A program made the position numbers and the translations under genes. Of a stretch of 64,000 bases of DNA, positions 28,101-59,612 are shown piece by piece (within the stretch, counting starts at the first letter, position 1; each line of letters begins with the position of its first letter). Origin of the DNA: Nemertoderma westbladi. Lineage: Eukaryota; Animalia; Xenacoelomorpha. A model generated the notes under the pieces. The model was not told where the DNA came from. It ran no database searches and was given only the letters and a program-made list of their open reading frames with translations. Where the stretch lies: positions 1 to 64,000 of the forward strand of contig JAUCBJ010004605.1 of NCBI GenBank assembly GCA_032718475.1. The letters run 5' to 3'.

Positions 28101-31100
28101 ACACAGGTGAGTAGCGAACGAGTGGAGAACATTACACGAAACATACACAGGTGAGTAGAGAACATTACACGAAACATACACAGGTGAGTAGCGAACATTA
28201 CACGAAACATACACAGGTGAGTAGCGAACATTACACGAAACATACACAGGTGAGTAGCGAACGAGTGGAGAACATTACACGAAACATACACAGGTGAGTA
28301 GCGAACATTACACGAAACATACACAGGTGAGTAGCGAACGAGTGGAGAACATTACACGAAACATACACAGGTGAGTAGCGAACGTGTGGAGAACATTACA
28401 CGAAACATACACAGGTGAGTAGCGAACATTACACGAAACATACACAGGTGAGTAGAGAACATTACACGAAACATACACAGGTGAGTGGAGAACATTACAC
28501 GAAACATACACAGGTGAGTGGAGAACATTACACGAAACATACACAGGTGAGTAGCGAACATTACACGAAACATACACAGGTGGGTGGAGAACATTACACG
28601 AAACATACACAGGTGAGTAGCGAACGAGTGGAGAACATTACACGAAACATACACAGGTGAGTAGCGAACGAGTGGAGAACATTACACGAAACATACACAG
28701 GTGAGTAGAGAACATTACACGAAACATACACAGGTGAGTAGCGAACATTACACGAAACATACACAGGTGAGTAGCGAACGAGTGGAGAACATTACACGAA
28801 ACATACACAGGTGAGTAGAGAACATTACACGAAACATACACAGGTGAGTAGAGAACATTACACGAAACATACACAGGTGAGTAGAGAACATTACACGAAA
28901 CATACACAGGTGAGTAGAGAACATTACACGAAACATACACAGGTGAGTAGAGAACATTACACGAAACATACACAGGTGAGTAGAGAACATTACACGAAAC
29001 ATACACAGGTGAGTAGCGAACATTACACGAAACATACACAGGTGAGTAGAGAACATTACACGAAACATACACAGGTGAGTAGAGAACATTACACGAAACA
29101 TACACAGGTGAGTAGCGAACATTACACGAAACATACACAGGTGAGTAGAGAACATTACACGAAACATACACAGGTGAGTAGCGAACGAGTGGAGAACATT
29201 ACACGAAACATACACAGGTGAGTAGAGAACATTACACGAAACATACACAGGTGAGTAGAGAACATTACACGAAACATACACAGGTGAGTAGCGAACATTA
29301 CACGAAACATACACAGGTGAGTAGAGAACATTACACGAAACATACACAGGTGAGTAGAGAACATTACACGAAACATACACAGGTGAGTAGCGAACATTAC
29401 ACGAAACATACACAGGTGAGTAGAGAACATTACACGAAACATACACAGGTGAGTAGCGAACGAGTGGAGAACATTACACGAAACATACACAGGTGAGTAG
29501 AGAACATTACACGAAACATACACAGGTGAGTAGCGAACATTACACGAAACATACACAGGTGAGTAGCGAACGAGTGGAGAACATTACACGAAACATACAC
29601 AGGTGAGTAGAGAACATTACACGAAACATACACAGGTGAGTAGAGAACATTACACGAAACATACACAGGTGAGTGGAGAACATTACACGAAACATACACA
29701 GGTGAGTAGAGAACATTACACGAAACATACACAGGTGAGTAGCGAACATTACACGAAACATACACAGGTGAGTGGAGAACATTACACGAAACATACACAG
29801 GTGAGTGGAGAACATTACACGAAACATACACAGGTGAGTAGCGAACATTACACGAAACATACACAGGTGAGTAGCGAACATTACACGAAACATACACAGG
29901 TGAGTAGCGAACATTACACGAAACATACACAGGTGAGTAGAGAACATTACACGAAACATACACAGGTGAGTAGAGAACATTACACGAAACATACACAGGT
30001 GAGTGGAGAACATTACACGAAACATACACAGGTGAGTGGAGAACATTACACGAAACATACACAGGTGAGTAGAGAACATTACACGAAACATACACAGGTG
30101 AGTAGCGAACGAGTGGAGAACATTACACGAAACATACACAGGTGAGTAGAGAACATTACACGAAACATACACAGGTGAGTAGCGAACGAGTGGAGAACAT
30201 TACACGAAACATACACAGGTGAGTAGCGAACGAGTGGAGAACATTACACGAAACATACACAGGTGAGTAGAGAACGAGTAGAGAACATTACACGAAACAT
30301 ACACAGGTGAGTAGAGAACGAGTAGAGAACATTACACGAAACATACACAGGTGAGTAGCGAACATTACACGAAACATACACAGGTGAGTAGCGAACATTA
30401 CACGAAACATACACAGGTGAGTAGAGAACATTACACGAAACATACACAGGTGAGTGGAGAACATTACACGAAACATACACAGGTGAGTAGAGAACATTAC
30501 ACGAAACATACACAGGTGAGTAGCGAACGAGTGGAGAACATTACACGAAACATACACAGGTGAGTAGAGAACATTACACGAAACATACACAGGTGAGTAG
30601 CGAACGAGTGGAGAACATTACACGAAACATACACAGGTGAGTAGCGAACGAGTGGAGAACATTACACGAAACATACACAGGTGAGTAGAGAACGAGTAGA
30701 GAACATTACACGAAACATACACAGGTGAGTAGAGAACGAGTAGAGAACATTACACGAAACATACACAGGTGAGTAGCGAACATTACACGAAACATACACA
30801 GGTGAGTAGCGAACATTACACGAAACATACACAGGTGAGTAGAGAACATTACACGAAACATACACAGGTGAGTGGAGAACATTACACGAAACATACACAG
30901 GTGAGTAGAGAACATTACACGAAACATACACAGGTGAGTAGAGAACATTACACGAAACATACACAGGTGAGTAGAGAACATTACACGAAACATACACAGG
31001 TGAGTAGAGAACATTACACGAAACATACACAGGTGAGTAGAGAACATTACACGAAACATACACAGGTGAGTAGAGAACATTACACGAAACATACACAGGT

Positions 31101-36879: not shown

Positions 36880-37858
36880 ATTTAATAGCGGCTACAGCGG
36901 CCAAGAATGCAGTTAAGGCTGCATCTAGGTCCCTGAACAGGCAGTACTCGGTTAATTTACAGGAGCTAATAAACCAACAGGTTGATGCCATCAATGATGC
37001 TGACGACAGCAGGCAATCATCCCAGGCATGGAAATCGATCAATTTGCTTACTGGGCGGAAAAGCCAACCAACCACCAAGGTTAAGGCTGAATCACCAGCC
37101 GATCGCCTCAATGGTTGGAAAGCCCACTTTGAAAAGCTCCTCAATAATGACAGGGTATTGCCTGATAACTTTATAGAAGTAAAAGTGTCTGAGTCTGTAC
37201 TCCCAGATATTCCCATTGGCGATATCTCCTTTGCAGAAGTGAAGGCTGCTGCAAAGAGCATTAAGACCAATCGTGCCAGTGGAGTAGATGGTGTTCCCCC
37301 TGAGGTCTTTAAAATACCTGAGTGTTTAAAGCTCATCTATCCCATCATAGTAGACATGTACCGAACAACAAGAGTCCCACAAGAAATGAAAACAAATAAG
37401 TTGGTGCCAGTTCCCAAGAAGGGCAACCTAACACTCTATGGTTCTTTTCGGGGAATCTCATTGATCTCGATTGCTGCAAAGCTATACAATAGGATTCTAT
37501 TAAATCGCATCAGGATCCCATTGAGAGACTGCACCGTGGAAATCAGAATGGGTTCCGTAAAGGTCGTGGGACCATGGAGCCCATTTTGGCACTTAGAAGG
37601 ATAATTGAAGAATTATCAAAAAAGAAAGACAGGCAGGCATCTGGCTGTTATCTTTGTTGACTTCTTCAAGGCCTTTGATTCAGTCTCTCGCTCACGTATG
37701 TTCAGCATACTTTCATTATATGGGATTCCTGATGAAATTATTGCAGCAATCAGATCAGTATACGATGGTTCGACAACATTTGTGTCTACTGTTGATGGTG
37801 ACACAGAACCATTTGAAGTGTTATGGGGCGTCCTCCAAGGAGACACACTTGCACCATT
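36880..37858 (+). mobile_element. 5'-truncated non-LTR retrotransposon (RTE-like), left half of RT, frameshifted
   Basis: ASGVDGVP, PVPKKGNL, FRGISLISIAAKLYNRILLNRI, FVDFFKAFDSV, GVLQGDTLAPF motifs; frameshift near 37530. Clade assignment is tentative. Confidence 0.88.
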
Positions 37859-39012
37859 TGTTCGCGCTTTTAGACCTTTGGCAGTTTAACCCGCCAAATT
37901 ATGATGTCTTCTAGATAATAAATCACTTTTAGTCTATGACAAGTATTTAATTCACTACACTAGTCGAAACCAATCTGTGCGCGATCATTCACCCGCTGGA
38001 TATACCCGGGAGATTGGGTTCGACGGCTTAATCTTATTGCTATGTAAGCCTAATGTATTATTCGACTGACAGTATTATATAATTTCTGACAATATTATTC
38101 ACCTTCGGGGAATATTAACAGTTCCTTTAGGACGTGGCGCTCTATTTATACAAACAGAGTTATGACTTAAACTACTCACAACGATATGGCTTAGTTATAA
38201 TTCACATATATGGCGCATTCTTTAGGAAATGCTTCGTTATCAGGTTCACCCATACACAATGCTGCACAATACTGCACACTAATCTGCCGATCTTCACTGA
38301 TTTTAGTCACATATAAAAGGAACACGGACCGAATCATGTAGGGTCTATCAAATAACATTAGATTCACTTCAAACCACTTTAACATAAGTCACAATCGTTA
38401 TATGTAACCTTTCTCTCTTACCTTCGGTATATCAAGAATATTGGGTTTCGGGGTTATTTATCGTTATTCCAAATATAATAATTCATCAACCATATTATGA
38501 AGAACTGACAGTAAATAGCAGTATAACAATATAAAGTATACACAGGTTGTTTGATTAGGTATGGTATGTTATGTTGTGATAAATGCAGTGATAACGGATA
38601 TATGCCCTTTATAATTAAGCCTACTAGTGTTAGACTAAATCAGAAAAGCACAAAATATTTACAAGCCGTTCTCTCCTGGCTTAGGAAAGAAAGACCAACA
38701 ACACTGAAAACTGATAAGAATAACCTTATTTACAAAGGGTTCCACCCAACACAGAGAAAGAGCATAAAGATAGGAAAATTCAGTTCAGTAGATCTGTGAT
38801 AGGTCGAAATCAAAATCAACTCAAATTCTATTGGGAGATACTTTCCCAAGCTAGTTGGACAATCAAACGTAGCCCAGATCCCTTCGCACAGCGAATCAGC
38901 CAATCAGCCGGTAGCTTGTGCTATTCGAGTTATAGATCCCTTTTTAGAGTATTCTAGCGACTGGGGGGGAACTGGTTGCAAACGAATCAGTTATCCCACA
39001 AAAGCTTTTACA
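37859..39012 (-). repeat. 3' LTR (1,154 bp)
   Basis: TGTTCGCG...TTTTACA; preceded on the minus strand by a short purine-rich tract GGGAGCGG (39013-39020, PPT-like). Confidence 0.96.
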
Positions 39013-39090
39013 CCGCTCCCAGAAAATGGGATTTAAGTCTATAAAATATACAAAATCACAATTTCTAATATACATAAATACTCTAAACAG

Positions 39091-40866
39091 TTAGTCTTTC
39101 TTGCGCGGACGGCGTTTACGCAGTTTTTTAAAGCTAGCAAGAGTCATTTTCTCTTTGGGGCGAGCCACTTTACGAGGAGGGCTGTAGCTCCTAGGCGAAG
39201 GGTGCAATATAATTGCATCAGAAGGTGCAGGGTTACGATCGGTATACCCGCCGGTCGAAGTACCTGGTTGATTAATATCAACCTCAGTGGAGTGAGGTCT
39301 GACGGCCTTTAGAGCGCGTCTCAGGACAGCAGCTCCTACGGGTCCTTGACGGGTCGTCTGGACACTAGCGGTGGGTGGACCGTGAGTGGTGAGGAACTTT
39401 CTCGGTTTAATGGTTCTCTCCAGCTCGCGTTCTCGGGTTCGATATTCATATGGTCGCCGAGATATTTCCTGTAGTTCAGGATGCGAGTTCACAAAGATGT
39501 CGCCATACTCAGGGTCCTGACGGATAAAATTGATCAGGTGATATGTGGTTATATCATTAGGGTTAACGTTTCTAAGGTATTTCCTGACAAACTTGGTGGA
39601 AATACACTCACCAACACGCTTCATTAACTCGTAACTTGGTACGTGTGTTTTCTGTTCAATCGACGCGAATAGATAAGGATGGAACGCGTAAACTCCCTCG
39701 TAAGCTCGTCCAGGGTAATAGCGATGTCGGGATTCGCAATGTAAATCGGCGTTCGCTTCCCAAGCTCGGATGTATCGCAGGGTGATCATCTCGTCTACGC
39801 TCTCTAAATCGCGATTAAAGGGACAATTGTAACTTTCATGTCCTTTAAGTTGGCAGTAGTGACATTGAGTCATAAATTGTGGGCAGACGGCAAATATATG
39901 AGAGTTATTAAGCCGGCAATAAGCACAATATATTTCCATCATCGGTTGTTCGAGGAAATAGGAACAAGGTACGCTCGAGTCTAGAGGAGTGAAGTGGTCT
40001 CTCGATGCGCATAATCGACAACGTTTTCGAGAAACGTAGTTGGCGTGTCGATAATCGTACGCTGTGAGACGCTGTGGACCTTGATACCACTCTATGACAT
40101 AATCATTGTCACTGCTCCGGGAAGCCGTAGGTTGAATCGCTTCTGATTCCAAGCATACTGGTTCATCCTCCAGCTGCATAGACGAAGTGGGTGCGTCGGT
40201 TTCCGTAAGTGGACCCACTGTCTGTATTTCCACGACAGAATAACCTGTAGATATTCGGGGTCTTTGTATAACGGATGAATGTAGGTTCTGTATACAAACG
40301 TCTTGAAAGACGGCAAATCCAGCGCTACTCAGTTTCTCCGCAGCTGAGTCTCTAAGACTGAGCTTGGTCAGCGCGCGGTCTTTGAACTGACTATCGACGT
40401 TACGGAACGGAGTCAGAAAGCGCCGGAAACATTCGAAACGTATGAACTTATTGTGTTCGTCTAACTTGGCGAGTTTAGTTCCAAGTATTAACGGGTGAGC
40501 GCGTATGGTACGACTGCACACATCGGCTAGCCAACCGGCAAGTGCTGCGTTTTCAAAGATCGTGTATATAGCTAAGGAAGGGCGAAGTGGAACACTCATA
40601 AAGCTATATACTGCACCAGGCGCAGTTAATGGTCCTTCAAAATATAAACGGGAGTAATGGTCTCCATATACCTGCTGGTAATTGATAGGATTTCCAACTT
40701 TGAAGTTCCATCCATATTCTTGAAAGGCAAGATGTCCGATGGATGTCCGTTGTACTTTAGTAATGTCGCTGGGTGTATTGGCATACATAGTGCGAAAGAA
40801 ACCTCGGCCTTCGGCCCAAGGAGCAATCAGCTGAGTATCAACGAAAGGGTATGGAATGTTCTCCAT
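39091..40866 (-). CDS. Accessory ORF of the Bel/Pao element, 591 aa, with three Cys/His knuckle-like motifs and a basic C-terminus; function unknown
   Basis: Long non-repetitive ORF. CHYCQLKGHESYNC is a canonical CX2CX4HX4C; also CRLCASRDH and CAYCRLNNSHIFAVC. Ends KKLRKRRPRKKD. Confidence 0.78.
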   Translation of the reverse strand: MENIPYPFVDTQLIAPWAEGRGFFRTMYANTPSDITKVQRTSIGHLAFQEYGWNFKVGNPINYQQVYGDHYSRLYFEGPLTAPGAVYSFMSVPLRPSLAIYTIFENAALAGWLADVCSRTIRAHPLILGTKLAKLDEHNKFIRFECFRRFLTPFRNVDSQFKDRALTKLSLRDSAAEKLSSAGFAVFQDVCIQNLHSSVIQRPRISTGYSVVEIQTVGPLTETDAPTSSMQLEDEPVCLESEAIQPTASRSSDNDYVIEWYQGPQRLTAYDYRHANYVSRKRCRLCASRDHFTPLDSSVPCSYFLEQPMMEIYCAYCRLNNSHIFAVCPQFMTQCHYCQLKGHESYNCPFNRDLESVDEMITLRYIRAWEANADLHCESRHRYYPGRAYEGVYAFHPYLFASIEQKTHVPSYELMKRVGECISTKFVRKYLRNVNPNDITTYHLINFIRQDPEYGDIFVNSHPELQEISRRPYEYRTRERELERTIKPRKFLTTHGPPTASVQTTRQGPVGAAVLRRALKAVRPHSTEVDINQPGTSTGGYTDRNPAPSDAIILHPSPRSYSPPRKVARPKEKMTLASFKKLRKRRPRKKD

Positions 40867-41804
40867 ATTCCTGTTGTATGCCCAATATGTTTTCCGACAG
40901 TGACAGTGATGGTAGTGGTAAAGAGCAGGGGAAGACCTATGTCGTATTCAGAAATATTCCGAAATACGATCTCAGTAGGAAGATTGTTACATTCGAGGAC
41001 TATCTCCAACTGAATTTATCCCCAGTGCGATGAGGGAACAACCAGTTCAAGTATATGTTTGCCTCAGTTGTTCTACATAAGATTTATATCCCCAATCATT
41101 AAGGGAGGTGAACAACCAGATTTATGACACATAATGGTACCAGTTGTTCACAAACTATCCGCGTGTCCTTTCAGTCCTTGTTTCACGGTTGTGGACTTGA
41201 GGAAATTAGGAAGTGGTTGATTATCTAATCAAGAACGAGAGGGTGGAAGTTGATATCATAAATATCAACAGAATATGACATGGACAGGAGGTGCGGACAC
41301 CAATATTAGCATACAAATAAACGGTAAGGGGGTGGAGGTTGATTATCATAAATATCAACAGAATATGACATGGACAGGAGGTGCGGACACCAATATTAGC
41401 ATCCAGATGAACAGTAAGGGATGGGAGGTTTAATGCTCGTTTCCCGAAGCTCCGAGCACGTTGGAAGAGAAGGTGGGATGAAATATGTCGTATCTTTAGT
41501 AACGACATATAAGAGGGTAAGAGGAGTAGCGAGGAGGGAGGATATACGATAGTATCCATAAGATACCACAATGGATGTGTTTTCCGTCACATCATCATTC
41601 ATTCCTGCCTTTTAATTGTGACACTGATCACAATAATTACAGGAAAACGATGAAGGAAGGGAAAGTTACAGCCTCCCGAAGGAGACCGCCCGCGAGCACC
41701 CGTGCCCCGGGGAAAACTATTCACATTATGGACCCTGGACATTAACCCATGTCTTTTCTCCAGTGGTTCTCCTTTATTTGTTCGCATCAACCTTCTTCCA
41801 CGTT

Positions 41805-43834: not shown

Positions 43835-46800
43835 TTAAGTTGGGGAGTCCCTAGATGTCGGTTGGATTAGGGAAGTGGTCGTGGGAAGAGTTTCTTGCCT
43901 TCCATAGTTTCCGGAGAGCTCTCTGTCTCTTTCCAGTAAACATAAACGACCCACTGGGCGATTGAGCTGTTGAGTCTCAAAGACTATCCCTGGTTTCTTA
44001 AAGTTCCGCCGCATGACGACGAGCTCTACTGATCGCACCAAACCATCGCTCGAGATATGCGTCTCGATGATACGTCCTGTTTGCCATCGCTTACGTGGGA
44101 GATCGGGGTCCACAATAAGCACCATGTCTCCAGCGCTGACGTTTTCTTGCTGCGCAAACCACTTAGTTCGAAGTTGTAGAGTGGGCAGGTAATGTTTCTC
44201 GAAATGGTCAGCGAAACGACGGGATAGCAACTGCATAAGTTGCCAGGTTCGACGGCAGTACTCGTCTCCGTCTGTGATCTCCGATCGTGGGAGCATGGCT
44301 ACGGGTTTCTTCAGTAGAAAGTGCGCGGGTGTTAGCGCTTCCAGGGAATCAGGATTTGAAGAGACTGGCATAAGCGGTCTTTCGTTGAGATAGGCGGCGA
44401 TTTCCTCCATTAACGTCCGCAATAGTTCGTCGGTGAGATAAGCGCGACAAGGCACAATAAAGTGGAACGCAGTCTTCACGCTCCTAATCAATCTCTCCCA
44501 ACTTCCTCCCCACCAAGGGGCGTCGGCGGCGTTGAAGGTCCAGCTAGACGCTGTTATCCTTAGCTGATCGTCCACCTGTCTTTTGTTCCAGTCCTTTACG
44601 TAAGCTTGAATTTCGTTGTTGGCGCCAATGAAGTTCGTTCCCTTATCCGATCTCATCGTGTTACTGGTTCCGAAGCGAGCGATCTGTCGTCGTAAACTCA
44701 ACACGAAGCTGTTGGTGGATAGATCGTTTACCATATCGAGATGGATAGCTCTACAAGTCATACAAACGAAGATGACACACCATCTCTTGACTATAGTCCG
44801 GGCACGATATACTTCAATAGGGCCAAATAAATCCACACCGGTATTAGTAAAGGGTGGTTCATAGAAGCTTACTCTTTCCCTAGGTAATTCTGCCTCTCGC
44901 TGTGTTAAAGGCCTACTGAATGCTTTCCTACAGGGTATGCAGTTCCTAAGAACTTGGTTCAGAGCCCTACGGGGTTTATAAAAATAGTAGCGAGTTCGAA
45001 TTTCGCTCAGAACTCGTTCTCTACCAGCATGATACAGTTTGCTATGAACATCTACAATTATCTTGATTTGTATGTCAAGATTTCTAATGAGGATGGGAAA
45101 CTTAGTGTCAAAGGATAATGGGGCGTTGGTTAGCCTACCTCCAACACGTATTAACCCATCTATCATGGTACTAGAGAAGCGATCCCTTAAGCGCATCTGT
45201 GGATTTCTTAATAACAGGAAATACTTATCGGAATCCTCATAGCATTGTAGAAGTCTCAGCATCTGTTTGTTGGTTTCATCATGCTCCTGGTAACTGATCT
45301 TCTCCTTTAGAAACCTGTCGGATACCTTGTATTGGGGAAGATCTTTAACAACATGGACTCGTGCAGATGTTGATGGAGCATCATCACTATGGGTCTTTGT
45401 CCCGGAGTAACGATGATGAAAACATCGTTTTAAATAGGTGACAGCTTTACAGAGCCGATTCCAGGAACTGTAGTGACGTATCGCTCTCTGCAAGAGAGGT
45501 GAGAGTCCTTGCGAAATATCTGGTATTCCAGATTTCCAATCCTTGTCACGGATTTCCAAGACTTCTCTAGTCGTGGCGGTGGGTTTCTGATCCAAAGCAT
45601 CCTCTCCGGAAGTAACTAATACAGATAGATCAACCGCAGGTTTAAACAACTTCGATTTACTCGCTCGAGTTTTGGGTTTAACTTTCTCCGCTCCCTTGGC
45701 CTGTCTGATCTCTGCTGTGGTGAGATGAGGAGGCCATTCTTCTTCTTCTCTGTAGAGAAAGTCGGGTCCTCCTAACCATTCGGGAGTATTTACCAATTCC
45801 TTTGGAGTCGCTCCTCGGGACGCGATGTCTGCTGGATTAATCGTTCCGGGGCAATGTCTCCATTGGTCCATCGTCGTGCGACTAAGTATGATGGCTACCC
45901 TATTGGTAACGAAGACGCTGAACTGACAGACTTCATTGGTTATATACTCTAACACGAGTAAAGCGTCGGTCCAATAGACAGTTTTCTCTAATGGATAGTC
46001 AATCTGTTCGGTTACATTCCGGCCGATGGCTGTAGCGTATAGAGCCGCTTTTAACTCCGCTCGAGGAACTTTCAACTTGTTGTTGATTAATGCCTTAGAA
46101 GTAACCAGGGCGACTTTGATTCCATCCGGAGTTTCCACCCTTAGATAGGCTACTATACCTATTCCCATATCGCTGGCGTCTCCAAACACATGGAGTTGAT
46201 AGGAATACGTAGGGAGAACATGACCAAAATATGAACGGGAAATTATAAAATCCTCGATAGCCGGCAGAGAATCTTCCCATTTCATCCACTTCTTTAATAA
46301 TTCTCCCTTAAGTGGATTGTCCCATGAGTGGTTTTCAAGCCACATTTGTTGTACCAAACTACGAGCAATCAATATAATTGGGCTAATAAATCCCAATGGA
46401 TCGAAATAAGTGCTCAGTATACTTAAGCAAATCCGTTTGGTTCGAACTGGATTATCTCGCTGTTTTAGCTGGAAAAACAGGATATCTTGCTCTGTGTCCC
46501 ATTTCAAGCCGAGTGTCTTGGTTTCTGGCAGATCATCTTTGATCAAATCGAGATCTTTCGCTCCTCGATCCTCCGCAGGGATCGACTCCAGAAACTCACG
46601 GGAGTTGCTGGTGAATTTGGTTAATCGAAACCTACCTCGTTTTAAGCACTCTACCGTTCCTTTAGCTACCTCAATGGCTTCCTCAACTGATGGAAGGGAC
46701 TTCAGATTGTCGTCCATGTATATGTCTCTCTTGATGTTGTCGATCACTTCCTTAGAGAAGGCCTCTCGGTTGTCCTCTGCAGTGGTACGCACTACCGAAC

Positions 46801-47810
46801 AGGCGTTGGAAGGGCTTGAGATTATCCCAAAGGCCTGGATGGTCATCCAGTACTCCACCGGTTTCTGGTTGAGGTCTCCTTCGGGCCACCACAGAAATCG
46901 TAGACTATCTCGATCCCTATCTAACACCTTGACTTGTAAGAACATGCCTTCTATATCGGAGGCGAAAGCAATCGAATATTGTCTGAATCTTAAAAGAATT
47001 CCCAACAAAGATTGAAGCAAGTTAGGTCCGGGTAACAATTCACAGTTAAGGGATTGACCCATGTAAAGAGCGGAGCCATCAAACACTACTCTCACTTCGT
47101 GTGGCTTACCGGGTTTAGGAACGTAATGGTGAGTTAAGTAATACGTTCTTTCAGTCACAGGTGTTTCTTCCGGTACTCTCTCCGCGTATCCCTTACTAAT
47201 AAATTTTTCCAGCTGTGTTTGATACATTGCTTTAGCTGAAGAATTAGCCGTAAGGCGTCGATGGAGTTGCGCGATTCTTTTTTCCGCCAAGGGTCTGTTA
47301 TTGATGAACTTCGGTTCTTTCTTGCGGAAAGGTAGACCGACTTCATACCTACCTTGATCTTTGAGGAAGCGTGTAGTTGTCTCTTGGATCTGCTTAGCCC
47401 TTTCCTCTTCCACCGACAAGGCTTTATCGTAGGAATTGGGCTCTACCGCCTCTTGCGTAAAGAATCGTACGGCATGTTCATCTCGAGTCTTGGCATTATG
47501 ACGCTCAATGACGTCATTTAACTCGTCGTTATAAGCTTCTCGTTCAGATGGATAGAGAAGTTGACATAAGTTCACTTGGTTCTGCCAAGCCTCGTTTTCC
47601 TTAAGGGGATCGATGGTATTCTCCTCATCAAAAAGCTGGTGAACGTCGTCATTATCTGAGGAGTATGGAGTTCCCTCAGTTAAGTTGTCTCCCTCACTGG
47701 TATCATCTTCCCATTCACTCACCTGGCATACGCTCTCTGGCGGTAGTCTTTCTCTGAGTGTTCTACGGGAAGGGCCAGTAAAGTACCAACCTACTCTAGT
47801 TCTTACCGTG
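43835..47810 (-). CDS. pol: Bel/Pao pol: RT (YMDD), RNase H (HVFGDAS), integrase (HHCC; GVDLFGP, SDKGTNF, WERLIRSVK) and conserved C-terminal domain
   Basis: 1,295-aa ORF; the frame stays open upstream through VRTRVGWYFTGP to about 47838. Domain order and motifs are typical of Bel/Pao. Confidence 0.95.
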
Positions 47811-48977
47811 TAGTGGCTGCGGTTGAGCAGGCCGTTTCTCTAATGTCTCCAGCGCCTCATGCGCGTTTTGGCCGATGAGTATTTGCACTCCAGGATAATC
47901 AGTCTGGAATCGAGGTATCTTAAGATGTTGGATACTCTCATCCTCGTCCCAATTATAAAGGTCTGCTTGAGTAGTAGCGAAGTTCTTTATAGCCACCATT
48001 TTCACTGACCTTATGCTATGTTCTCCTAGTTCGTCCTGGGGGGTGGACAACGCTCCTACATAATAATCAGCTATTATCGTAGATTTCCAAACTTGCATAA
48101 TGCCTGACATATTGAGCTTAGTTTGGAACTTGGGTTGTCCAGCAAATATATCTTCGGCTAGCTCTTTATCGATGAATGTTCCTGTACTACCGGAGTCAAG
48201 GAGGGCGTTCACTACATAACTCCGTTTAGGTCCGTGAACCCTTACCTGCACCACAGGAAACTCTCGGATCCCTACATTGGAAGATGGCTCTTTCCAAGAT
48301 GGTTGTCGTTCAGAAGTAGTTAGAGTGAAGTCGCTGTCTGTATCTTTTTCATATGTGAGTGCTCGATACACTGCGGTATTTATCATGTAACAGGATTCGT
48401 TTTCGTCGGAGAACTCGTCTGTATAGAATCCTTCCATCTCAGATTGATCAGTGTCGTTCACATCACTGAATTGGACATGTAGCTCGGAATCACTTACCTG
48501 ATTCTGACTATTTCGATCGAATTCAGCGTGCAACAAGATATGATGTTTCGCACCACACTTTGCACACCTTATGTCAGAGAAACAGGTTCGCCGTTGGTGT
48601 CCTTGTCTGAGGCAATTATAACATAACCGCTTATCCCACATGACTTCGCGTCTCTCCGTTAATGATTTCTTTAGAAATTCATCACACCTATTCAAATGGT
48701 GGGTCCCGTCACACAGCGCACATTTCGGTTTGATGTTACTTACCTTATTCTGAGTCACATTGTGTACACTTGCCTTTTCTTCGGGCTTTCTCACCTGAAT
48801 TCTCTTGGGAGACGTGGGAGGAGTTTTTCGTACCTGTTCCCTCCTGTCATTTGCTCGAGACTTGAATTTACTTACCTGATCTTTAGGCATCTTATTGACA
48901 TAATAAGATCTATCAGTGTCTTTCCCGCTATCTTCTCCTTGAGAAGTCTGGCTTTCGCCGTCGTCTGTATAACACAC
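47796..48977 (-). CDS. Bel/Pao gag zinc knuckles and aspartic protease
   Basis: CALCDGTHHLNRC, CYNCLRQGHQRRTC and CAKCGAKHHILLH (Bel triple knuckle); ALLDSGST catalytic motif. Separated from both neighbours by +1 frame changes. Confidence 0.92.
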   Translation of the reverse strand: MCYTDDGESQTSQGEDSGKDTDRSYYVNKMPKDQVSKFKSRANDRREQVRKTPPTSPKRIQVRKPEEKASVHNVTQNKVSNIKPKCALCDGTHHLNRCDEFLKKSLTERREVMWDKRLCYNCLRQGHQRRTCFSDIRCAKCGAKHHILLHAEFDRNSQNQVSDSELHVQFSDVNDTDQSEMEGFYTDEFSDENESCYMINTAVYRALTYEKDTDSDFTLTTSERQPSWKEPSSNVGIREFPVVQVRVHGPKRSYVVNALLDSGSTGTFIDKELAEDIFAGQPKFQTKLNMSGIMQVWKSTIIADYYVGALSTPQDELGEHSIRSVKMVAIKNFATTQADLYNWDEDESIQHLKIPRFQTDYPGVQILIGQNAHEALETLEKRPAQPQPLHGKN

Positions 48978-51900
48978 TGAACGTTACCTTTTTCCTAGAG
49001 ACGGGTTTTTCACTTACCTTGTTTTCCGGTGTCTTCTCTCGGGACTGCTTGAGGAGTTGCAATTTCACTTCTCCATCCAAGAATGACATGAGATCAGTCA
49101 TGGTAGGGTCTCGTCGTTGTTGTTCCATCATATATAGTACTTTCTTATCCCAGCGTGTGCCTACCCCACCTTTCGGTAAAGTAGAAGCCACAGCTCCAAT
49201 GACCATAGAACTTTGGTATTCATGAGACTTACCTAACCAATCTAATTGTCTACAGATCTCTTGAATCTCATCGGAAAACTCTATTATCCCACTGCTGATG
49301 AACTTTCTGGGCGCTACTAATTTTGCATATAAATAATTAGCGATATTATTCCTATTACCATACCTGATGTTTAGTGTGTCCCAAACTTGTCTTAATCCGT
49401 CTGGATGTCCAATAAACTTTAACGCCATTAACTTGGGAGATCCTTCCAAGCACTCGATGAGGTATCTAAGTTTTTCTCCATTAGATAGTACAGAGTTCTG
49501 TATGTTATCTTTGTAATATTCATTAAAAGGTAACCATTTCATCTCATCTCCATTGAACTTGACGATCTCTCCCACCTTTACCGCTTGCCGGGCTTCGGTT
49601 CTAGCCATTTGACGCGTAAAACTTTCTTGGGCCATCGTGTTATTTAATATCGAGTTATCGGTATATAAATTTCTCGGATTATGATCAGTTCTATAGGGAA
49701 TGTCATTATCGACAGGTCTATAATTACCCTTAATAGGGTTCACTATAGGAGTTTCTACTTCGCTAGCAGTATATATGCGTGTAGGCTCCACACCTTGCGC
49801 ATGAGATACTTCAGACCTAACAGGTTGACACATTGTTACAGAGGGTGGCGGTATACCCTTTTGAGTATTTACTAATTTATCGCGCTCTAGCGCGATACTT
49901 TGCTGCACTTCTTGCAACTCTAGTCTACTTTCCCTTACTGTGCCCTTGAATTGCTGGACAGTCTCCTGCATCTGCCCGAGCAGGATATCCATCCCCCGCC
50001 GTCTCTCGTCCACCCATTCGACCGCCGAAGCGGGAGTCGCCAACGTTGTAGCGAGCGGACGAGGGACCACGGGCGACAAATCAGGAATATTTCGCTCGGG
50101 GTCTAGGACCTGAACTGTCTCCCGGGCAGTTCTACGGGGCACAGGTAGCTTAGTGCTATGCAGAGGGAATTTAGAGGTAGTTTCAGGGAGCACAGGTGTG
50201 TCTATCACCGAAGGGGTGATTTCAAGAACAGGCCTAATTATTTCAGGCTCATCTACTATAGTAGGGAGTCTTTCTATTTTAATTATTTGGTCTGTGGGCT
50301 CTGTACTACCTAAGTTGGTGTTATTTAGTTGCCTTCTAACAGCTGGAGGCAAATCAGGCAATTTCTGACGGTGGAATGTTCTTTTACGTCTGCTTAGACG
50401 AGATCTATTTCCTTTGCCTTCAGTATCGGTGGTATCGCCTTCCTCAGATGATGTATATCCCTGTCTTTTGGGAGTAGATCGATTCATCATCTGCATATTA
50501 CTAGCTGTTAACTGTTTATTTATGCAGTCTTGATTCTCTTGAAGATTTTCCAACTCCAGTTGGGTGATCTCTTCAGCCGCTCTCCGTTCTGCTTCCGCTA
50601 CCGCTGCCGCTTTTGCCTCTGCCGCTGCCGCTTTTGCCTCTGCCGCTGCCGCTTTTGCCTTTGCCTCGGCTTCTGCTTTTGCCTCTGCCGCTGCCGCTTT
50701 TGCCTTTGCCTCGGCTTCTGCTTTTGCCGCTTTTGCCTTAGCCTCGGCTTCTGCTGCTGCCGCTTTTGCCTTTGCCTCGGCTTCTGCTGCTGCCGCTTTT
50801 GCCTCTGCCTCGGCTTCTGCTGCTGCCGCTTTTGCCTCTGCCACTGCTTCTGCTAAGGTCGCTTTTCTTTCTGCCTCTGCCACGGCTGCTATCTTTCTGT
50901 CTTCTATACGTTTTTTCCTTACTTGTTCTTCCTTTTCTCTAGCGATGCGGAGTTGTTCATCGAATTTAGCTTGATTCGCCGCTAACCTATCTACATCTAT
51001 TGCATCCAACACACGCTGGGCTCCTTCACTATTAGGGCTAAGTCCATCTAGCCTTCTCCTCAACTCTTCATCTCCCAAAAAACGCTGATAGTCTGACAGA
51101 TAGATGTCAATGGCATCCTTCTTATGCGGTTTCTCTGCCGTCGCTTCACTTTCCACTTGGGAAGAAATAGCGTCCGTTGATTCTCCATGGGTTGAGCGCT
51201 CCTCCAATTGAGCTTTCCACTGAGCTGCTCCTTGAACCTGGCGACTCACCCGTTGAAACCAAGTCTTTACGGCAACTTGCAACGACGTGTCTTGTCTTCT
51301 TTTAGAAGCCTCCTCAAAGGCTGATAAGATTAGCCTAATTCGCAGAATTCTTTCTCTAACTTGATAAAGCAGTTGTCCCTGCTCTTGAGGTCCTTGAGGT
51401 TGTTTAAACAGTTGTTTTTCCACTCGCTCCATAGAGCTGAAGAATCCTTGTGCGTATCCGGCTGCGGACCTCTTCCATACAGCTGGATCGATGGTTTCCT
51501 TGGCTACTCCCATCCGGTGTATGTCTTCCCAGGCAGCTTCTGATAAATCAAACGGGAGTCCGGGTCCGGGGAAGTTCCATTGCGACTCGACAATAGACTT
51601 CAGTTCTTCCCTCGTGTATCCCGCATAGCTATCTCTAGTTGATCGCTGACTTCTCGTCCAATCGATCTGGTGTTCTTCCACCGCAATCAATAACCTAGCG
51701 AGTACGGCTGCAGGAAGGATGAGAAGGGGATCCGTATAAACCGCATCCATCATCTTTGCTCCGCGCTCGGGTGTCAGTTCTACCGTATCTTCGCTACTGG
51801 AGCTGTCGGGCCGCTGAGAAATAAATTCTTGGCTAGCGGGTTGTTGCTGTTCCGCTGCTTCTTGGTCCCGCTTGACCTGAGCTCGAGTGCCTATGATAGA

Positions 51901-52068
51901 CCTACGATGTTGGACCAGCCTAGGTTCTGTTATTACTACTGGAGGGATGACCTTCCTCACAGTGGGAGGTGAACTGAACTTACGACTAGATGGTTCTACA
52001 TCTCTATCTGAGTCGCAGATAGTTACATCTAATAAACTGTCTGACAGGTTCTGCTTAGTATCAGACAT
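48928..52068 (-). CDS. gag: Bel/Pao gag (1,046 aa) with an AEAKAAA coiled-coil repeat and DUF1759-like core
   Basis: FNGDEMKWLPF...LSNGEKLRYLIECLEGSP...WDTLNIRYG is typical of Bel/Pao gag; ATG at 52068. Confidence 0.88.
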   Translation of the reverse strand: MSDTKQNLSDSLLDVTICDSDRDVEPSSRKFSSPPTVRKVIPPVVITEPRLVQHRRSIIGTRAQVKRDQEAAEQQQPASQEFISQRPDSSSSEDTVELTPERGAKMMDAVYTDPLLILPAAVLARLLIAVEEHQIDWTRSQRSTRDSYAGYTREELKSIVESQWNFPGPGLPFDLSEAAWEDIHRMGVAKETIDPAVWKRSAAGYAQGFFSSMERVEKQLFKQPQGPQEQGQLLYQVRERILRIRLILSAFEEASKRRQDTSLQVAVKTWFQRVSRQVQGAAQWKAQLEERSTHGESTDAISSQVESEATAEKPHKKDAIDIYLSDYQRFLGDEELRRRLDGLSPNSEGAQRVLDAIDVDRLAANQAKFDEQLRIAREKEEQVRKKRIEDRKIAAVAEAERKATLAEAVAEAKAAAAEAEAEAKAAAAEAEAKAKAAAAEAEAKAKAAKAEAEAKAKAAAAEAKAEAEAKAKAAAAEAKAAAAEAKAAAVAEAERRAAEEITQLELENLQENQDCINKQLTASNMQMMNRSTPKRQGYTSSEEGDTTDTEGKGNRSRLSRRKRTFHRQKLPDLPPAVRRQLNNTNLGSTEPTDQIIKIERLPTIVDEPEIIRPVLEITPSVIDTPVLPETTSKFPLHSTKLPVPRRTARETVQVLDPERNIPDLSPVVPRPLATTLATPASAVEWVDERRRGMDILLGQMQETVQQFKGTVRESRLELQEVQQSIALERDKLVNTQKGIPPPSVTMCQPVRSEVSHAQGVEPTRIYTASEVETPIVNPIKGNYRPVDNDIPYRTDHNPRNLYTDNSILNNTMAQESFTRQMARTEARQAVKVGEIVKFNGDEMKWLPFNEYYKDNIQNSVLSNGEKLRYLIECLEGSPKLMALKFIGHPDGLRQVWDTLNIRYGNRNNIANYLYAKLVAPRKFISSGIIEFSDEIQEICRQLDWLGKSHEYQSSMVIGAVASTLPKGGVGTRWDKKVLYMMEQQRRDPTMTDLMSFLDGEVKLQLLKQSREKTPENKVSEKPVSRKKVTFSVLYRRRRKPDFSRRR

Positions 52069-53384
52069 GTTTATGTATACAGTTGAATGTCTACTGCTGT
52101 ATTACAGTCTGAGCAAGTCTAGTAACTCAGTATTAACTGCTAGCCTAGTAATTAATTACCGGTACTGCTACTCAGTGTAGCGTGATATATATAATATATT
52201 AGAATACCGGTATGCTTATAGTATATATAACTATTATTACAGACTAGGTTTATCACAGAATACCGGTATAATTTTAGCACAAATATATATAACTATATAA
52301 TAGGCCTATCGGGAATACCGGTATACATAGTAGTATATATAATTATAATTCTGGACTAGAATTAATTATAAAGTACCGGTATAGTTTCAGCCTAAATTTA
52401 TAGAAATAAAGATAATAGGCCTATCGTAAATACCGGTATATCAATTACTTTAAATAATGGAATTTCTGAATTTTTAGGGTTACTTGGTTACTTTACTTAC
52501 TTTATTATCGCTATTTGAGCAGTAGACCAACTGATATGGAGACCTAATGGTTGTATGGTAGGCCTACTATTTATAAATCATTAGATTTGATTTATAATAT
52601 ATATATACCCGTTTTAATGGGTTTTGTCAATGTTTGAAATAAATGTTATTATTTCTGAGGAGCAATCACTACACAAAGCGGTGCGCTTTCAGTGAAGTGT
52701 TACTTATAGGGCACTAAAACAAATAATTCTAATTTACCTAAGTTACTTAATACTACAAATTACGTACAATTCGGGTGAGATTACAATCTCTAAATAAACA
52801 CAAAAATTTACAAAAACACAAATACGAAATTTTAGGGTAATTTTACAAGAAGTCTACAAACCAGCCTAACAAAGGGTTAGAAAACTGGTTATTACAACGG
52901 ACAGGGTACTACGGTATTTGAAATAATAAGTAGTAGTAAGTACACTGCGTTGTCCAGATAGGAAAATACCACCGCCTGACGACCTATAGCCGTATCGCTA
53001 CAGGTACTACGTTATGTATCACGGAGTGTTCCTACCTAGAAGTTAATAGAGCTAATCGAACGTGCCTATCAACCACTTTACAACACAAATATAATGCCTA
53101 CTAATTACTTTCGGAAAGCACTGTACACTAAACCCTAAATTAGGTACGAGTACTTGTATAACATATAATCTGTAGTTAAATATACTTGAACAGCTAAAAG
53201 AACCACGGCATCTGCTGGAGTAACCGGTGCACAAAATCACCAGTCTTTACCTACGCCAAGCAGCCCGTGTAGTACCGGGGTTAATTTAACTATAGCGGTA
53301 TGTATAACAAACACAATTACTGTAGGAACAAACTTGGGGAATGAATGTTGCGAATAATCGCATAAACTCTGAATAATAAATATT

Positions 53385-53950
53385 ACGCTACGCGTACAAA
53401 CCACTCAAACAAAATGCAGACCAAACACTGACAGACTACTATCAAGCCTAAACAAACTACGGTATATGCAGACTCCGAAATAATTAGGTAGTATGCGTTC
53501 TAACCCAGTAGTACGACTTATTCTTTAGTTGGGGGTTTACCTTACAGCATTCGCTGCCCCTACTTCCTAACCGTTCTTTATCGGACAAGTGATCTACACA
53601 CGCTGCAATCCGTTCAGACCTAATAACAGCTAGACAACTATCCAGCCTACAAATTATCTAAATAAATATTATACGCTACCCGTACAGACTTACACAAACA
53701 AAGTACAGACTAAACGATGGCAGACTACTCTCAAGCCTAAATAAACTACAGGACATGCAGACTCCGAAATAATTAGGTAGTATGCGTTCTAACCCAGTAG
53801 TACGACTTATTCTTTAGTTGGGGGTTTACCTTACAGCATTCGCTGCCCCTACTTCCTAACCGTTCTTTATCGGACAGGCTCTACACACACTGTAATCCGT
53901 TCAGACCTAACAGCAATCAGACAACAGCTCAGCCTACAAATTGTCTGTAC
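53385..53950. repeat. About 290-bp tandem duplication in the Bel/Pao 5' leader
   Basis: GCAGACTCCGAAATAATTAGG...CTTTATCGGACA occurs at about 53468 and 53757. Confidence 0.85.
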
Positions 53951-54297
53951 AATCTGATCAGGCTTACACGCCTTCTGTTCAATACTGGCCTACAAATAAA
54001 TAAAACTGACAGAAATAGGCCTAAGTAAAATCCCAATAAAAACCAGGCATCCCCGATTAATTATTAAGACCTACCGGCATATAAAGATCAAATCGAATAA
54101 TACTGCTGTACTTATACGGGAAGTACCGGTTAGGACAGTTAGGCCTACGGACCTACAGAAGTACCGGTTCTGGCAGTTGGACCTACGGGCCTACGGCAGT
54201 ACCGGTTCTGGCAGTTGGGCCTACTGACCTACAGATGGACCGTTCAGGTTTACCGGTTGACCGGTACTTTCAACTTTATTGCTTACTGCAATAAAGC

Positions 54298-54309
54298 TAT
54301 ATCCGTTAT
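54298..54309 (-). promoter_or_regulatory. Primer-binding-site position: ATAACGGATATA, non-tRNA type, complementary to LTR positions 55042-55053
   Basis: Immediately follows the 5' LTR on the minus strand; lacks TGG; exact 12-nt inverted match inside the LTR. Confidence 0.65.
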
Positions 54310-55469
54310 TGTTCGCGCTTTTAGACCTTTGGCAGTTTAACCCGCCAAATTATGATGTCTTCTAGATAATAAATCACTTTTAGTCTATGACAAGTATTTA
54401 ATTCACTACACTAGTCGAAACCAATCTGTGCGCGATCATTCACCCGCTGGATATACCTGGGAGATTGGGTTCGACGGCTTAATCTTATTGCTATGTAAGC
54501 CTAATGTATTATTCGACTGACAGTATTATATAATTTCTGACAATATTATTCACCTTCGGGGAATATTAACAGTTCCTTTAGGACGTGGCGCTCTATTTAT
54601 ACAAACAGAGTTATGACTTAAACTACTCACAACGATATGGCTTAGTTATAATTCACATATATGGCGCATTCTTTAGGAAATGCTTCGTTATCAGGTTCAC
54701 CCATACACAATGCTGCACAATACTGCACACTAATCTGCCGATCTTCACTGATTTTAGTCACATATAAAAGGAACACGGACCGAATCATGTAGGGTCTATC
54801 AAATAACATTAGATTCACTTCAAACCACTTTAACATAAGTCACAATCGTTATATGTAACCTTTCTCTCTTACCTTCGGTATATCAAGAATATTGGGTTTC
54901 GGGGTTATTTATCGTTATTCCAAATATAATAATTCATCAACCATATTATGAAGAACTGACAGTAAATAGCAGTATAACAATATAAAGTATGCACAGGTTG
55001 TTTGATTAGGTATGGTATGTTATGTTGTGATAAATGCAGTGATAACGGATATATGCCCTTTATAATTAAGCCTACTAGTGTTAGACTAAATCAGAAAAGC
55101 ACAAAATATTTACAAGCCGTTCTCTCCTGGCTTAGGAAAGAAAGACCAACAACACTGAAAACTGATAAGAATAACCTTATTTACAAAGGCTTCCACCCAA
55201 CACAGAGAAAGAGCATAAAGATAGGAAAATTCAGTTCAGTAGATCTGTGATAGGTCGAAATCAAAATCAACTCAAATTCTATTGGGAGATACTTTCCCAA
55301 GCTAGTTGGACAATCAAACGTAGCCCAGATCCCTTCGCACAGCGAATCAGCCAATCAGCCGGTAGCTTGTGCTATTCGAGTTATAGATCCCTTTTTAGAG
55401 TATTCTAGCGACTGGGGGGGAACTGGTTAGCAAGGCAAACGAATCAGTTATCCCACAAAAGCTTTTACA
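54310..55469 (-). repeat. 5' LTR (1,160 bp)
   Basis: Matches 37859-39012 except for 3 substitutions and one 6-bp indel found by eye. Confidence 0.96.
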
Positions 55470-56330
55470 CCATTCTTGTTCATTATTGTGGTTGACTATG
55501 TTCTACGCATGTCCTTAGATCATCATAATGATGATGGGGTGATGATAGCTCCACCTACTGGCTCCAGAAGTCGAGGAAATCCTGCCAAGTACCTAACTGA
55601 TCTAGACTTTGCTGATGACTTAGGAGTACTCTTAGAATCATTAGAGGGAGCCCAACGGCTCCTCAGCTCATTAGAACATGCTGCTTCTAGTGTTGGTCTT
55701 TTTATTAACTCCAGAAAGACCAAAATTTTGACAGTTAACTTTGAAAGTCCTCAGCAAGTCTGTGATCGGATGAGCATAAGCTCAAAGGATGGTATTCTTG
55801 AGCATGTGGACGACTTCTGTTACCTGGGATCATGGATCCGGAAGTCAGGTGAGGACCTTCGAATACGTAAGGGAAAGGCATGGGCAGCCTTGAATAGGCT
55901 TTCCAGGATTTGGAAGTCACCGAGAATTAATCGGAAACTTAAGGTCCGATTATTTAGAGCAGCAGTAGTTCCAGTACTCCTCTACGGGAGTCCATGCTGG
56001 GCTCTAACTGCTGAGGACACCAAATCTCTGGATGGCACATTCACAAGAATGCTACGCCGAGTTCATTGTGTCAAGTACAATGCACACATCTCCAACCAGA
56101 CACTATATAACATTGGAGGTGTCTCATTGGTTCCCCCAAGCTTGACACTAGAACAAAATCGCCTCCGCTTTGCAGGACATTGATTTCGCCGTGAGGACCA
56201 GCCAGTGCATAATCTTGTACTTTGGCAGCCTCATGGAGTGAATAAGCATGGTGGACAGCCCATGACTTTCTTGAGACGCATCTTAAAGGACACTGGCCTT
56301 GAAGATGCGGATGATCTAGCAAATGTCAAG
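55470..56330 (+). mobile_element. Right half of the RTE-like LINE (RT FADD motif and C-terminal region), degenerate at its 3' end
   Basis: Removing the LTR element and one TSD restores GVLQGDTLAPFLFIIVVDYVLR; LTDLDFADDL, DDFCYLGSWI, RLRFAGH. Confidence 0.9.
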
Positions 56331-57811: not shown

Positions 57812-57902
57812 GTCTCTTTGTTTTCCTGAAAAGTTTTAATTATTTTCGTAAAAGTATTTATTTATTTTTATTTCCTAAACGAGTTACCGGTACACAATCA
57901 CG

Positions 57903-59612
57903 ATGGCACATTCAGAAATCAGCTATTCAAGCAACGATCTGGTTTGCAACGAAAATCAGTTTATGCTACAAGACAACTCGTTTGGTCTATATTTCGATTC
58001 GGCGAACAAACTCTTCCCGTTAACGATAAATACAACCTTAAACCAACCCATCCCGATTCCGGCAAACTACGCGCACTTTATTTTCCGTGCCTGCTACGAA
58101 CTTCACGATGGACAATATCAAACCCTCGACGATAATAAACTTCATTCCTCCAACCACGGTTTCAAACTTTTAAAAAGGGACAACAAAATAACGTTCAATC
58201 TAACTACTTCGCCCGAGACGTTTACGATTCCAACTAGTATAGTCGATTTTATTCGAGAAAACATCAACCAAGATGTGGCAAATCGTTTACTGGGTTTAAC
58301 CACTCTCGTAACATCCTTCTTCTCCGATGATCGCTTATTCGATTTTCATAGTATCGCAAACTCGATTCTTCTTCTCATCTGGAACTCATCGACTCCGACC
58401 GAGGAAGAGGAGACTCGTTTCTTTAAACTTTTCGAGATTGATGTTCTCGCTTTCGGCGAGAAATTGAATGAGCTCACATGCCTTTACGCCAATAAAGTCT
58501 CCTATTACTTTGGATTCAATTATAGAGTTGGCACCCATGGAAGTATTAACCCAGTGAATCCACTCGAGTTAATAAAGCTGGAAGACACTGTAAACAGTTC
58601 ATGGATCACCTTTTCCGTCGCCTGCGCCATTTTATTTCAACAATATGTAAACATTTGTCGCCCTTTTATTAATCCTACTACTCACCTTGTCCTAAAACCG
58701 GGCAATTGGGTTGCTTTTGACTATTGCACTTTTGGGTTTGTTACAAATATTCGGAACGAGCGCAATTTAGCGATCACCAATGGCTACAGGGTTGACGATG
58801 GAAAGGCTATTGTTTCTTCTAGGGGCATGATTCTTCTTACACCAAGCGAGGTCAGCGAATTGAAATGGTTCGTTTCAACCTTCGAGGATAGTGAATGTGT
58901 CTGCTACGATGAACTTAACGTCTACAAAGACAACATTTCCGAGCGAATATCGATACAAAGTTGTATCAGTGATTCAGAAATTGATTTACAGATAACCGAG
59001 AGAAAATTTAACGAATCCTTTACTATAGCTAACACGATTCAAGCGCGCGAGGCTCTAATCAGATTCAAGGCTATGGCTATACAATTTGCTTTCAAACCAA
59101 AGCAGATTACGATCCCCAATCACCAGCGCTATCTCATAAATAGCAGTATCGCGGCCTTTATCTATAAGTTCAAATCCGAAAAATATGTTGGTATCTGGCC
59201 CATTTTAATGAAAGACGAAGAGAATACCACTTTTCAGTTCACCAACGGTCTCAATATTAGGGGCAGCGATTTTCTCACGATAAATACAACCAACCCACCC
59301 AACTCTCACTACTACCTCAGTCCTTACATTCATATCGAGAACAAACCAGCAGAAATTATATTCACCAATACGAAAAATACCAACACTATTACCCTACCCA
59401 ATGACTTTACCATCGCGCACCTTTTCGATTCACTAAAACGCTCTCTCAGAGAAGGCATCTTTCTCCCGCAGCAAACACACCTTAATCTATTTCAGCCCCC
59501 AAGAAAAGGTTATCTCAACAAACTATTAAAGAGAAAATTATCGCAGCCATTAATAGTATCGGACCCTAAAAGGGTTAAACCAGTTATTCTCGGAGGCCAG
59601 CAACCCTATTAA
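57903..59612 (+). CDS. Intronless orphan protein, 569 aa; possible PC4-like ssDNA-binding repeats; basic C-terminal NLS-like motifs
   Basis: Long non-repetitive ORF, good ATG context (ACGATGG), upstream promoter motifs, ATTAAA at 59631. Family not recognised. Confidence 0.78.
   Translation: MAHSEISYSSNDLVCNENQFMLQDNSFGLYFDSANKLFPLTINTTLNQPIPIPANYAHFIFRACYELHDGQYQTLDDNKLHSSNHGFKLLKRDNKITFNLTTSPETFTIPTSIVDFIRENINQDVANRLLGLTTLVTSFFSDDRLFDFHSIANSILLLIWNSSTPTEEEETRFFKLFEIDVLAFGEKLNELTCLYANKVSYYFGFNYRVGTHGSINPVNPLELIKLEDTVNSSWITFSVACAILFQQYVNICRPFINPTTHLVLKPGNWVAFDYCTFGFVTNIRNERNLAITNGYRVDDGKAIVSSRGMILLTPSEVSELKWFVSTFEDSECVCYDELNVYKDNISERISIQSCISDSEIDLQITERKFNESFTIANTIQAREALIRFKAMAIQFAFKPKQITIPNHQRYLINSSIAAFIYKFKSEKYVGIWPILMKDEENTTFQFTNGLNIRGSDFLTINTTNPPNSHYYLSPYIHIENKPAEIIFTNTKNTNTITLPNDFTIAHLFDSLKRSLREGIFLPQQTHLNLFQPPRKGYLNKLLKRKLSQPLIVSDPKRVKPVILGGQQPY

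Follow-up and report, generated by a model that had tools for sequence, protein, structure and literature searches.

Self-priming by LTR retrotransposons has been described for the Tf1/sushi group and predicted for Tcn1 and the copia TAR lineage, as far as the available excerpts of these reports go (PMC6317226, PMC4600332, PMC5341516). In Tf1, according to the excerpted text of PMC7175516, the RNA's first 11 bases pair with the PBS (primer-binding site), and RNase H cuts after base 11. The first-pass annotation of the locus discussed here had taken self-priming as established for Tf1/sushi elements, which is correct, but the trait is not confined to them, being predicted also in the TAR lineage of Ty1/copia (PMC6317226, in part). 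The ICTV profile of the Belpaoviridae gives an 18-nt PBS for tRNA-Arg or tRNA-Gly and a genome of 4.2-10 kb, and terms Bel/Pao replication poorly understood and tRNA-primed (PMC8742986). No description of Bel/Pao self-priming, or of a primer built across an LTR intron, was found by title and start of abstract, a search that had subscription journals, Repbase and GyDB outside its range. The available portions of PMC3118150 and PMC6238403 make no mention of primer, PBS or tRNA, that of PMC554778 mentions PCR primers alone, and those of PMC3601003, PMC8220671 and PMC3286476 contain nothing on Bel/Pao self-priming.

The element described here lies on the minus strand of the window (the whole stretch of DNA analysed, 64,000 nucleotides of a Nemertoderma westbladi contig). 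Like Tf1 and Tf2 of S. pombe, Tj1, and the Tf1/sushi/Tcn1 elements of Ty3/gypsy, it has no tRNA site, and the PBS past its 5' LTR complements about 11 nt of the LTR (PMC7175516, PMC5341516 and PMC4600332, excerpts). It differs from Tf1 in belonging to another superfamily and in being known from DNA alone, whereas in Tf1 the RNA's first 11 nt serve as primer and cleavage by RNase H has been demonstrated (PMC7175516, excerpt). The loop in the element is 732 nt, and in its relatives the primer lies across a predicted splice junction; a splice-built primer is absent from Tf1. The PBS of about 11 nt complementary to the LTR that marks the Tf1/sushi group is present, but the Ty3/gypsy chromovirus Pol is replaced by Bel/Pao domains, so that on predicted features the element works like Tf1 yet is no member of that group. 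With the TAR lineage of Ty1/copia (Houba, Osr-1) it shares self-priming predicted from sequence in an otherwise tRNA-primed superfamily; the TAR elements are plant copia elements, and a splice-built primer is not mentioned in the excerpted text (PMC6317226).

We put at roughly 0.68 the probability that the element primes its own reverse transcription, with bases 55053-55042 as the predicted primer in the 5' LTR part of its RNA, the 5' copy being favoured by analogy. If true, this would be a third superfamily-level case of self-priming, after Tf1/sushi and copia TAR, and loss of the tRNA would be a repeated move; it would presumably also make these elements independent of the host's supply of tRNA and let them escape silencing by tRNA fragments at the PBS. 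A primer existing only after splicing, as predicted in most relatives, would couple copying to host splicing, with two identical LTR copies treated differently. Annotation based on the PBS would miss or misfile many Bel/Pao elements.

The element and its Bel/Pao assignment

Self-comparison of the window delimits a young Bel/Pao element of 17.6 kb, the LTRs of which are 99% alike (three substitutions and one 6-nt indel). Its parts are as follows.

54310..55469, minus strand: 5' LTR, 1160 nt, TGT...ACA
37859..39012, minus strand: 3' LTR, 1154 nt
55470..55474, second copy 37854-37858, minus strand: target site duplication AATGG, 5 bp
39013..39020, minus strand: purine-rich PPT, preceding the 3' LTR
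48928..52101, minus strand: gag frame, 1057 aa stop to stop, with DUF1759 (Pfam, E 6.8e-12) and Cys/His knuckles
47796..48983, minus strand: second frame, 395 aa, with Cys/His knuckle motifs
43835..47839, minus strand: pol frame, 1334 aa, with RT (YMDD), PF05380, integrase zinc finger and DUF5641
39091..40947, minus strand: extra 3' frame in the env position, 618 aa, with Cys/His knuckle-like motifs

The insertion site is a LINE-like RT frame, and LINE contigs without the insert diverge from the window at 55468. Among the matches listed, PF05380 occurs in all 120 of 120 homologues, with a best identity of about 44-45%. The aspartic protease match in the 395-aa frame is weak (PF13650, E 0.0013, under the cut-off). 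The 618-aa frame belongs to no Pfam family, and an Atlas search returned weak CCHC matches only. Despite LTRs that are 99% alike, gag, the protease-bearing frame and pol occupy three overlapping frames (48928-48983 and 47796-47839), which may reflect programmed shifts, mutations or assembly errors.

In common with the Belpaoviridae as profiled by ICTV, the element has the Pol relationship, the PR-RT-RH-IN order, PF05380, DUF5641 and a DUF1759 Gag with Cys/His knuckles, together with TG...CA LTRs within 0.2-1.2 kb (at most 1.2 kb in the profile), a PPT and a target duplication (PMC8742986). It departs from two descriptive traits of the profile, having a self-complementary PBS rather than one for tRNA-Arg or tRNA-Gly and a length of 17.6 kb rather than 4.2-10 kb, and it carries the additional 618-aa frame (PMC8742986). 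By its predicted proteins it is thus a Bel/Pao-type element, not a typical semotivirus. Protein scans of viral_contigs confirmed no relative, and pattern scans of metagenome_contigs and viral_contigs for the element's own family returned 0 stretches.

The primer-binding site and its complement in the LTR

The features on which the priming argument turns are these.

54298..54309 (54309-54298 in sense order), minus strand: PBS without TGG, 12 nt, ATAACGGATATA, abutting the 5' LTR
55042..55053, minus strand: predicted self-primer, exact complement of the PBS, with an 11-nt core (55053-55043) constant in contigs
38591..38602, minus strand: second copy of the 12-mer, in the 3' LTR
54274..54296, minus strand: 9-bp leader hairpin directly past the PBS, absent from relatives
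55059..55064, minus strand: TATAAA, which may be a TATA box, a variant signal for poly(A) addition or neither of the two; some copies lack one of its bases
55041..55090, minus strand: 50-nt island conserved across LTR variants (4/4 runs)
55086..55090, minus strand: candidate 3' splice site, TTTAG preceded by a T-rich tract, where the island has its 5' edge
54638..54693, minus strand: LTR stretch predicted to pair with 55072-55040, competing with the PBS (5/500 shuffles)

Most of what the first-pass annotation reported about this site holds. The PBS follows the 5' LTR directly and has no TGG; the first TGG occurs only at 54045, 264 nt on, which excludes an intact tRNA 3' end as the partner of the PBS. 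Each LTR holds one exact complement (55053-55042 in the 5' LTR, 38602-38591 in the 3' LTR) and the window has no other, and the 3' base of the 12-mer lies opposite the first base past the 5' LTR, as priming would demand. A complement of at least 12 nt arose at offset 0 in 2 of 20,000 dinucleotide shuffles of the LTR and at offsets 0-3 in 11 of 20,000, and of 15,267 internal positions only two have a 12-nt complement in the LTR, the PBS itself being one. The hairpin at 54296-54274 is likewise real (z -3.9 against 100 base shuffles), as is the TATAAA 5 nt upstream of the 12-mer, at 55064-55059. The claim that similarity extends imperfectly beyond the 12-mer (GC..TTTAT) did not survive: an equal score was reached in 288 of 5,000 shuffles and in 89 of 1,130 LTR windows, so the extension is not significant. 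Pairing beyond the 12-mer was rejected, and so was the idea of a remnant of some longer primer that had been copied. A conserved hairpin after the PBS was also ruled out, z being -2 or lower in only 1 of 20 relatives.

ARAGORN finds no tRNA in the window and three across 60 of the 99 relative loci, which is too few for a test; Rfam gives five matches in 52000-55600, all with E above 1. A Cer element of C. elegans is said, in one proposal, to encode a tRNA-like primer.

There is no TATA about 30 nt upstream of 55053. Two further LTR motifs, TATAAATA at 54601 as a promoter and ATTAAA at 54402 as a poly(A) signal, were ruled out, being altered in most contigs; downstream of the 12-mer there is no AATAAA, and the ATTAAA at 54402 is the only one. 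Between the predicted primer and the PBS, the first six bases of the PBS recur three times (54918, 54852 and 54691, minus strand), and a strong donor-like AAG/GTAAGA is present at 54872 (minus strand), which could yield a spliced mRNA lacking the PBS and the 2.2-kb leader. This leader (52070-54297, minus strand) contains a unit of about 290 nt twice, along with numerous short repeats of the ACCGGT type. A splice-built primer in the window element itself was rejected, the best junction having a non-canonical donor and giving 11 nt, against 12 for the contiguous match.

Comparison within the species drew on four of seven available sequencing runs, all as contigs and none recorded as RNA (X5 may be RNA), in which the element's own family is abundant and varied. 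Since the LINE piece of X5 differs at only 2 of 233 bases, X5 was not counted as a second species, although it bears another species label. Across LTR variants a 50-nt island is conserved in all four runs, and on the 3' side it ends together with the predicted primer. Divergent sequence begins at 55041/55043 and at 55090, a firmer sign of the island than depth; summed depth in X1 is about 420,000 at 55060-55074 and about 7,000 at 55030-55039, contig depth not being copy number, and within the compared stretch (54985-55125) X4 and X5 have zero depth below 55040. Of these 141 bases, three are substitution sites at 2% or more, all in 55082-55085 and none in the 12-mer. Contigs clipped at 55043 bear a different base at 55042, which leaves a constant core of 11 nt. 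A deletion at 55059 turns TATAAA into TATAAG in some copies in all four runs. Past 55090 the other variants are likewise T-rich on the sense strand and end in a constant TTTAG resembling a splice acceptor. A hairpin formed by the island itself (55087-55069) was dismissed as a candidate, one of three variant sites keeping its pair and two breaking one.

The PBS itself varies at 54305, where the variant makes up 833 of 110,954 in depth in X1 (1%), 26,882 of 113,160 in X3 (24%) and 16.6 of 18.8 in X5 (88%), and reduces the stability of the duplex from -13.3 to -7.5 kcal/mol. Among the sites listed at 2% or more there is no matching change at its partner, 55046, and both X5 contigs traverse the LTR motif unchanged. 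Variants in the PBS region were taken from the best 40 of 273 substitution rows, which may hide further ones.

Relatives and predicted splice junctions

A profile of 33 Pol pieces retrieved relatives, of which the best 80 of at least 522 confirmed metagenome loci and 19 genome-contig loci were used. Twenty-four of these 99 loci entered a formal test, the other 75 being duplicates or without a definable LTR end; L063 was left out for an internal repeat. Set A holds 15 relatives in which two copies define where the LTR ends (for L005 by way of its twin L003, for L064 from a 74% pair), and set B holds nine with the end picked by eye after the match was known, which biases it. A free scan for complements gave many chance contiguous matches away from LTR ends and supplied leads only.

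In set A, 13 of 15 elements have no TGG, and for 11 of them the element's own LTR contains a complement of 11-15 nt, nine across a canonical GT..AG junction of a predicted intron and two contiguous at 11 nt. The remaining two are L021, with 10 nt contiguous, and L085, with 8 nt, where the predicted junction has one mismatch in both LTR copies. The two TGG elements have complements of just 5 and 3. Eight set B loci score 11 and one scores 10. Mismatched PBS/LTR control pairs reached 11 in 8 of 598 cases, each of them within L005/L015/L016 or within L039/L080, which have a primer in common. Of 25 own-LTR matches, 15 measure exactly 11 nt, as the primer does in Tf1.

Most non-TGG relatives have a contiguous complement of only 6-9 nt, directly after a pyrimidine tract and AG. 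When GT..AG junctions were searched without constraint, the canonical donor was chosen in 7 of 8 families, where 30 of 487 GTs are canonical, and the predicted intron is present in both LTR copies in 4 of 4 checked. A splice-built primer in the relatives is probable. In the close pair L083 and L084, two of the final three exon bases differ, and so do the two PBS bases that pair with them. The co-variation of PBS and 12-mer sought since the first annotation is therefore found in part, as two compensatory changes in the L083/L084 relatives and none seen within the element's own family. On sequence comparison the PBS/LTR feature is judged real and under selection. The 12-mer stands 732 nt from the LTR end, against 44-203 nt in the 12 set A relatives with at least 10 nt, and in nine of those 12 an A(A/T)TAAA is found downstream of the primer at a distance of 0-101 nt. 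An A/C-rich tract as a general feature past the primer was ruled out, a value of 0.7 or more being reached in only 1 of 20 relatives.

Two observations concern single loci. By eye, L091 (1871-3125) shows a TATA box, then two donor-like sites, then the primer junction, a layout that would put the primer far from the cap. The 19 Bel/Pao loci L081-L099 are in contigs filed under bacterial genomes and are probably host DNA in bacterial bins; L095, in a Wolbachia chromosome and with a TGG site, could alternatively be a real insertion.

An IQ-TREE phylogeny of 32 rows (24 test loci, the window element and seven others) was drawn from 96 rows after four short loci were dropped; L085 is labelled spliced on it despite the junction mismatch. 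Contiguous and spliced primers form the sister pairs L020/L024 and L021/L029, both with support 100/99. The window element is a lone branch of length 1.05, at most 45% identical to others, at an open fork shared with the TGG element L049 and the spliced L006. The TGG-type PBS of L049 (56-85) belongs to an element branching near a spliced-primer one, and by predicted primer type this region of the tree includes both tRNA priming and self-priming. At an open fork that holds a TGG element, the priming of the window element may or may not be homologous to that of its relatives. The proposal of independent evolution in Bel/Pao is likely at the superfamily level, but within it the tree fits one origin with reversal or several. 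Nor does predicted self-priming appear to be peculiar to a single tip of the lineage: most checkable relatives show it, mostly across a predicted splice junction, and it looks lineage-wide among the Bel/Pao relatives compared.

Predicted priming, its alternatives and neighbouring sequence

In the proposed mechanism, the RNA of the element would begin at or upstream of 55053, and its bases 55053-55042 (11-12) would fold onto the complement just past the LTR to form a duplex. The primer would be released by a cut at its 3' end, for which, as in Tf1, RNase H of the element is the presumed enzyme; reverse transcriptase would next extend over some 730 nt as far as the cut and jump to the 3' repeat. 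In LTR elements, sequence upstream of the primer's 3' end is inherited from the RNA's 3' LTR copy, and the primer and everything upstream of it would be rebuilt from there. In most relatives the primer would arise only once the predicted LTR intron is removed. Because the primer-making intron persists in both LTRs, the 5' copy would be spliced and prime while the 3' copy stays unspliced. If the 3' copy were spliced too, a contiguous primer would result, and the contiguous primers found among spliced ones on the tree are likely products of such splicing. The contiguous form in the window element may have come about by such an intron loss or may be an older state.

Folding gives a duplex probability of 1.0 for RNA 5' ends at 55053 or 55064 (6 of 6 folds, three each). 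For 5' ends at 55075-55110 it is 0.00-0.16 in 11 of 12 folds and 0.71 in one, 900-nt folds being unreliable; the drop is attributed to competition from 54693-54638. This stretch (54638-54693, minus strand) complements the entire island in two parts, between which lies a 6-bp hairpin, and its predicted pairing could be either a switch hiding the primer or a sign that the RNA start is close to the motif. The first-pass proposal of self-priming is strengthened by a motif on the edge of a conserved island and by a design that recurs in relatives with a compensatory pair, and weakened by the lack of compensation within the family. Also counting against it are the TATAAA 5 nt upstream, which could place the RNA start downstream of the motif, the 54305 variant with no listed change at 55046, the L085 mismatch in both LTRs, the 732-nt distance from primer to LTR end and the absence of a conserved poly(A) signal downstream.

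Some of these points are accounted for if priming occurs from the 3' end of the RNA. Host poly(A) cleavage would fall right after the 12-mer in the 3' LTR, and the trimmed RNA end would fold to the PBS and prime, forming a lasso; TATAAA would be a variant poly(A) signal, the island R, and the next 732 nt U5. The usual spacing between a poly(A) signal and its cut is matched, in that TATAAA starts 22 nt before the primer's 3' end and CA follows. There is no conserved canonical signal further downstream, and the long primer-to-LTR-end distance and the conserved 50-nt block are both explained. However, the sequence downstream is A/C-rich (T+G 0.31) with no GU-rich element, the signal reads TATAAG in copies with the 55059 deletion in 4/4 runs, the relatives mostly have their A(A/T)TAAA past the primer, and in those relatives the 3' copy cannot supply a primer that is made by splicing while the intron is inherited. 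This reading is unlikely. A joint one, in which a large aquatic-animal Bel/Pao branch dropped the tRNA, the spliceosome joins most primers, and poly(A) cleavage sets a 3'-end primer in the window element, is quite improbable.

The pairing could instead be structural, the 12-mer lying in U3 behind a TATA box and serving to circularise or gate the genome, with some host RNA as primer. TATAAA at 55064 would, at the usual spacing, put the transcription start near 55034, beyond the 12-mer, and the island does have a second partner inside the LTR. That would-be start sequence, however, is not kept across LTR variants, and in 11 of 13 non-TGG relatives the complement meets the LTR boundary in the geometry of priming, most families having a sequence of their own, so that one host primer per family would be needed. 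As to half-tRNA priming of the copia type, by a tRNA cut in the anticodon stem, none of 12 PBS registers matches the anticodon-loop pattern Y32-U33-N3-R37, a consensus used in place of host tRNA sequences. A structural role is, like the joint reading, quite improbable. Chance or convergence is very improbable: a Myb-type motif at both sites in AT-rich sequence (TAACGG/CCGTTA, which we take to fit the consensus YAACKG) covers 6 of the 12 bases and ATAACG occurs three times in the LTR, but only 2 of 20,000 shuffles match and relatives share the design without the motif, while a lost TGG PBS is opposed by depth at 54305 in X1 and X3 that mostly matches the window, with no TGG-bearing PBS insertion among the best 40 of 273 substitution rows and the indel rows listed (61 others).

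The rest of the window is repeat-dense. Two long open frames on the plus strand, 57879-59612 (577 aa) and 33928-36525 (865 aa), have no convincing Pfam family, and the latter spans a minisatellite. A long 11/33-nt satellite and many minisatellites occupy 19700-31000 and other arrays, and 32088-33539 consists of tandem units of 145-170 nt, each with CCGCTAGAGGGC, which presumably resembles a CTCF site.
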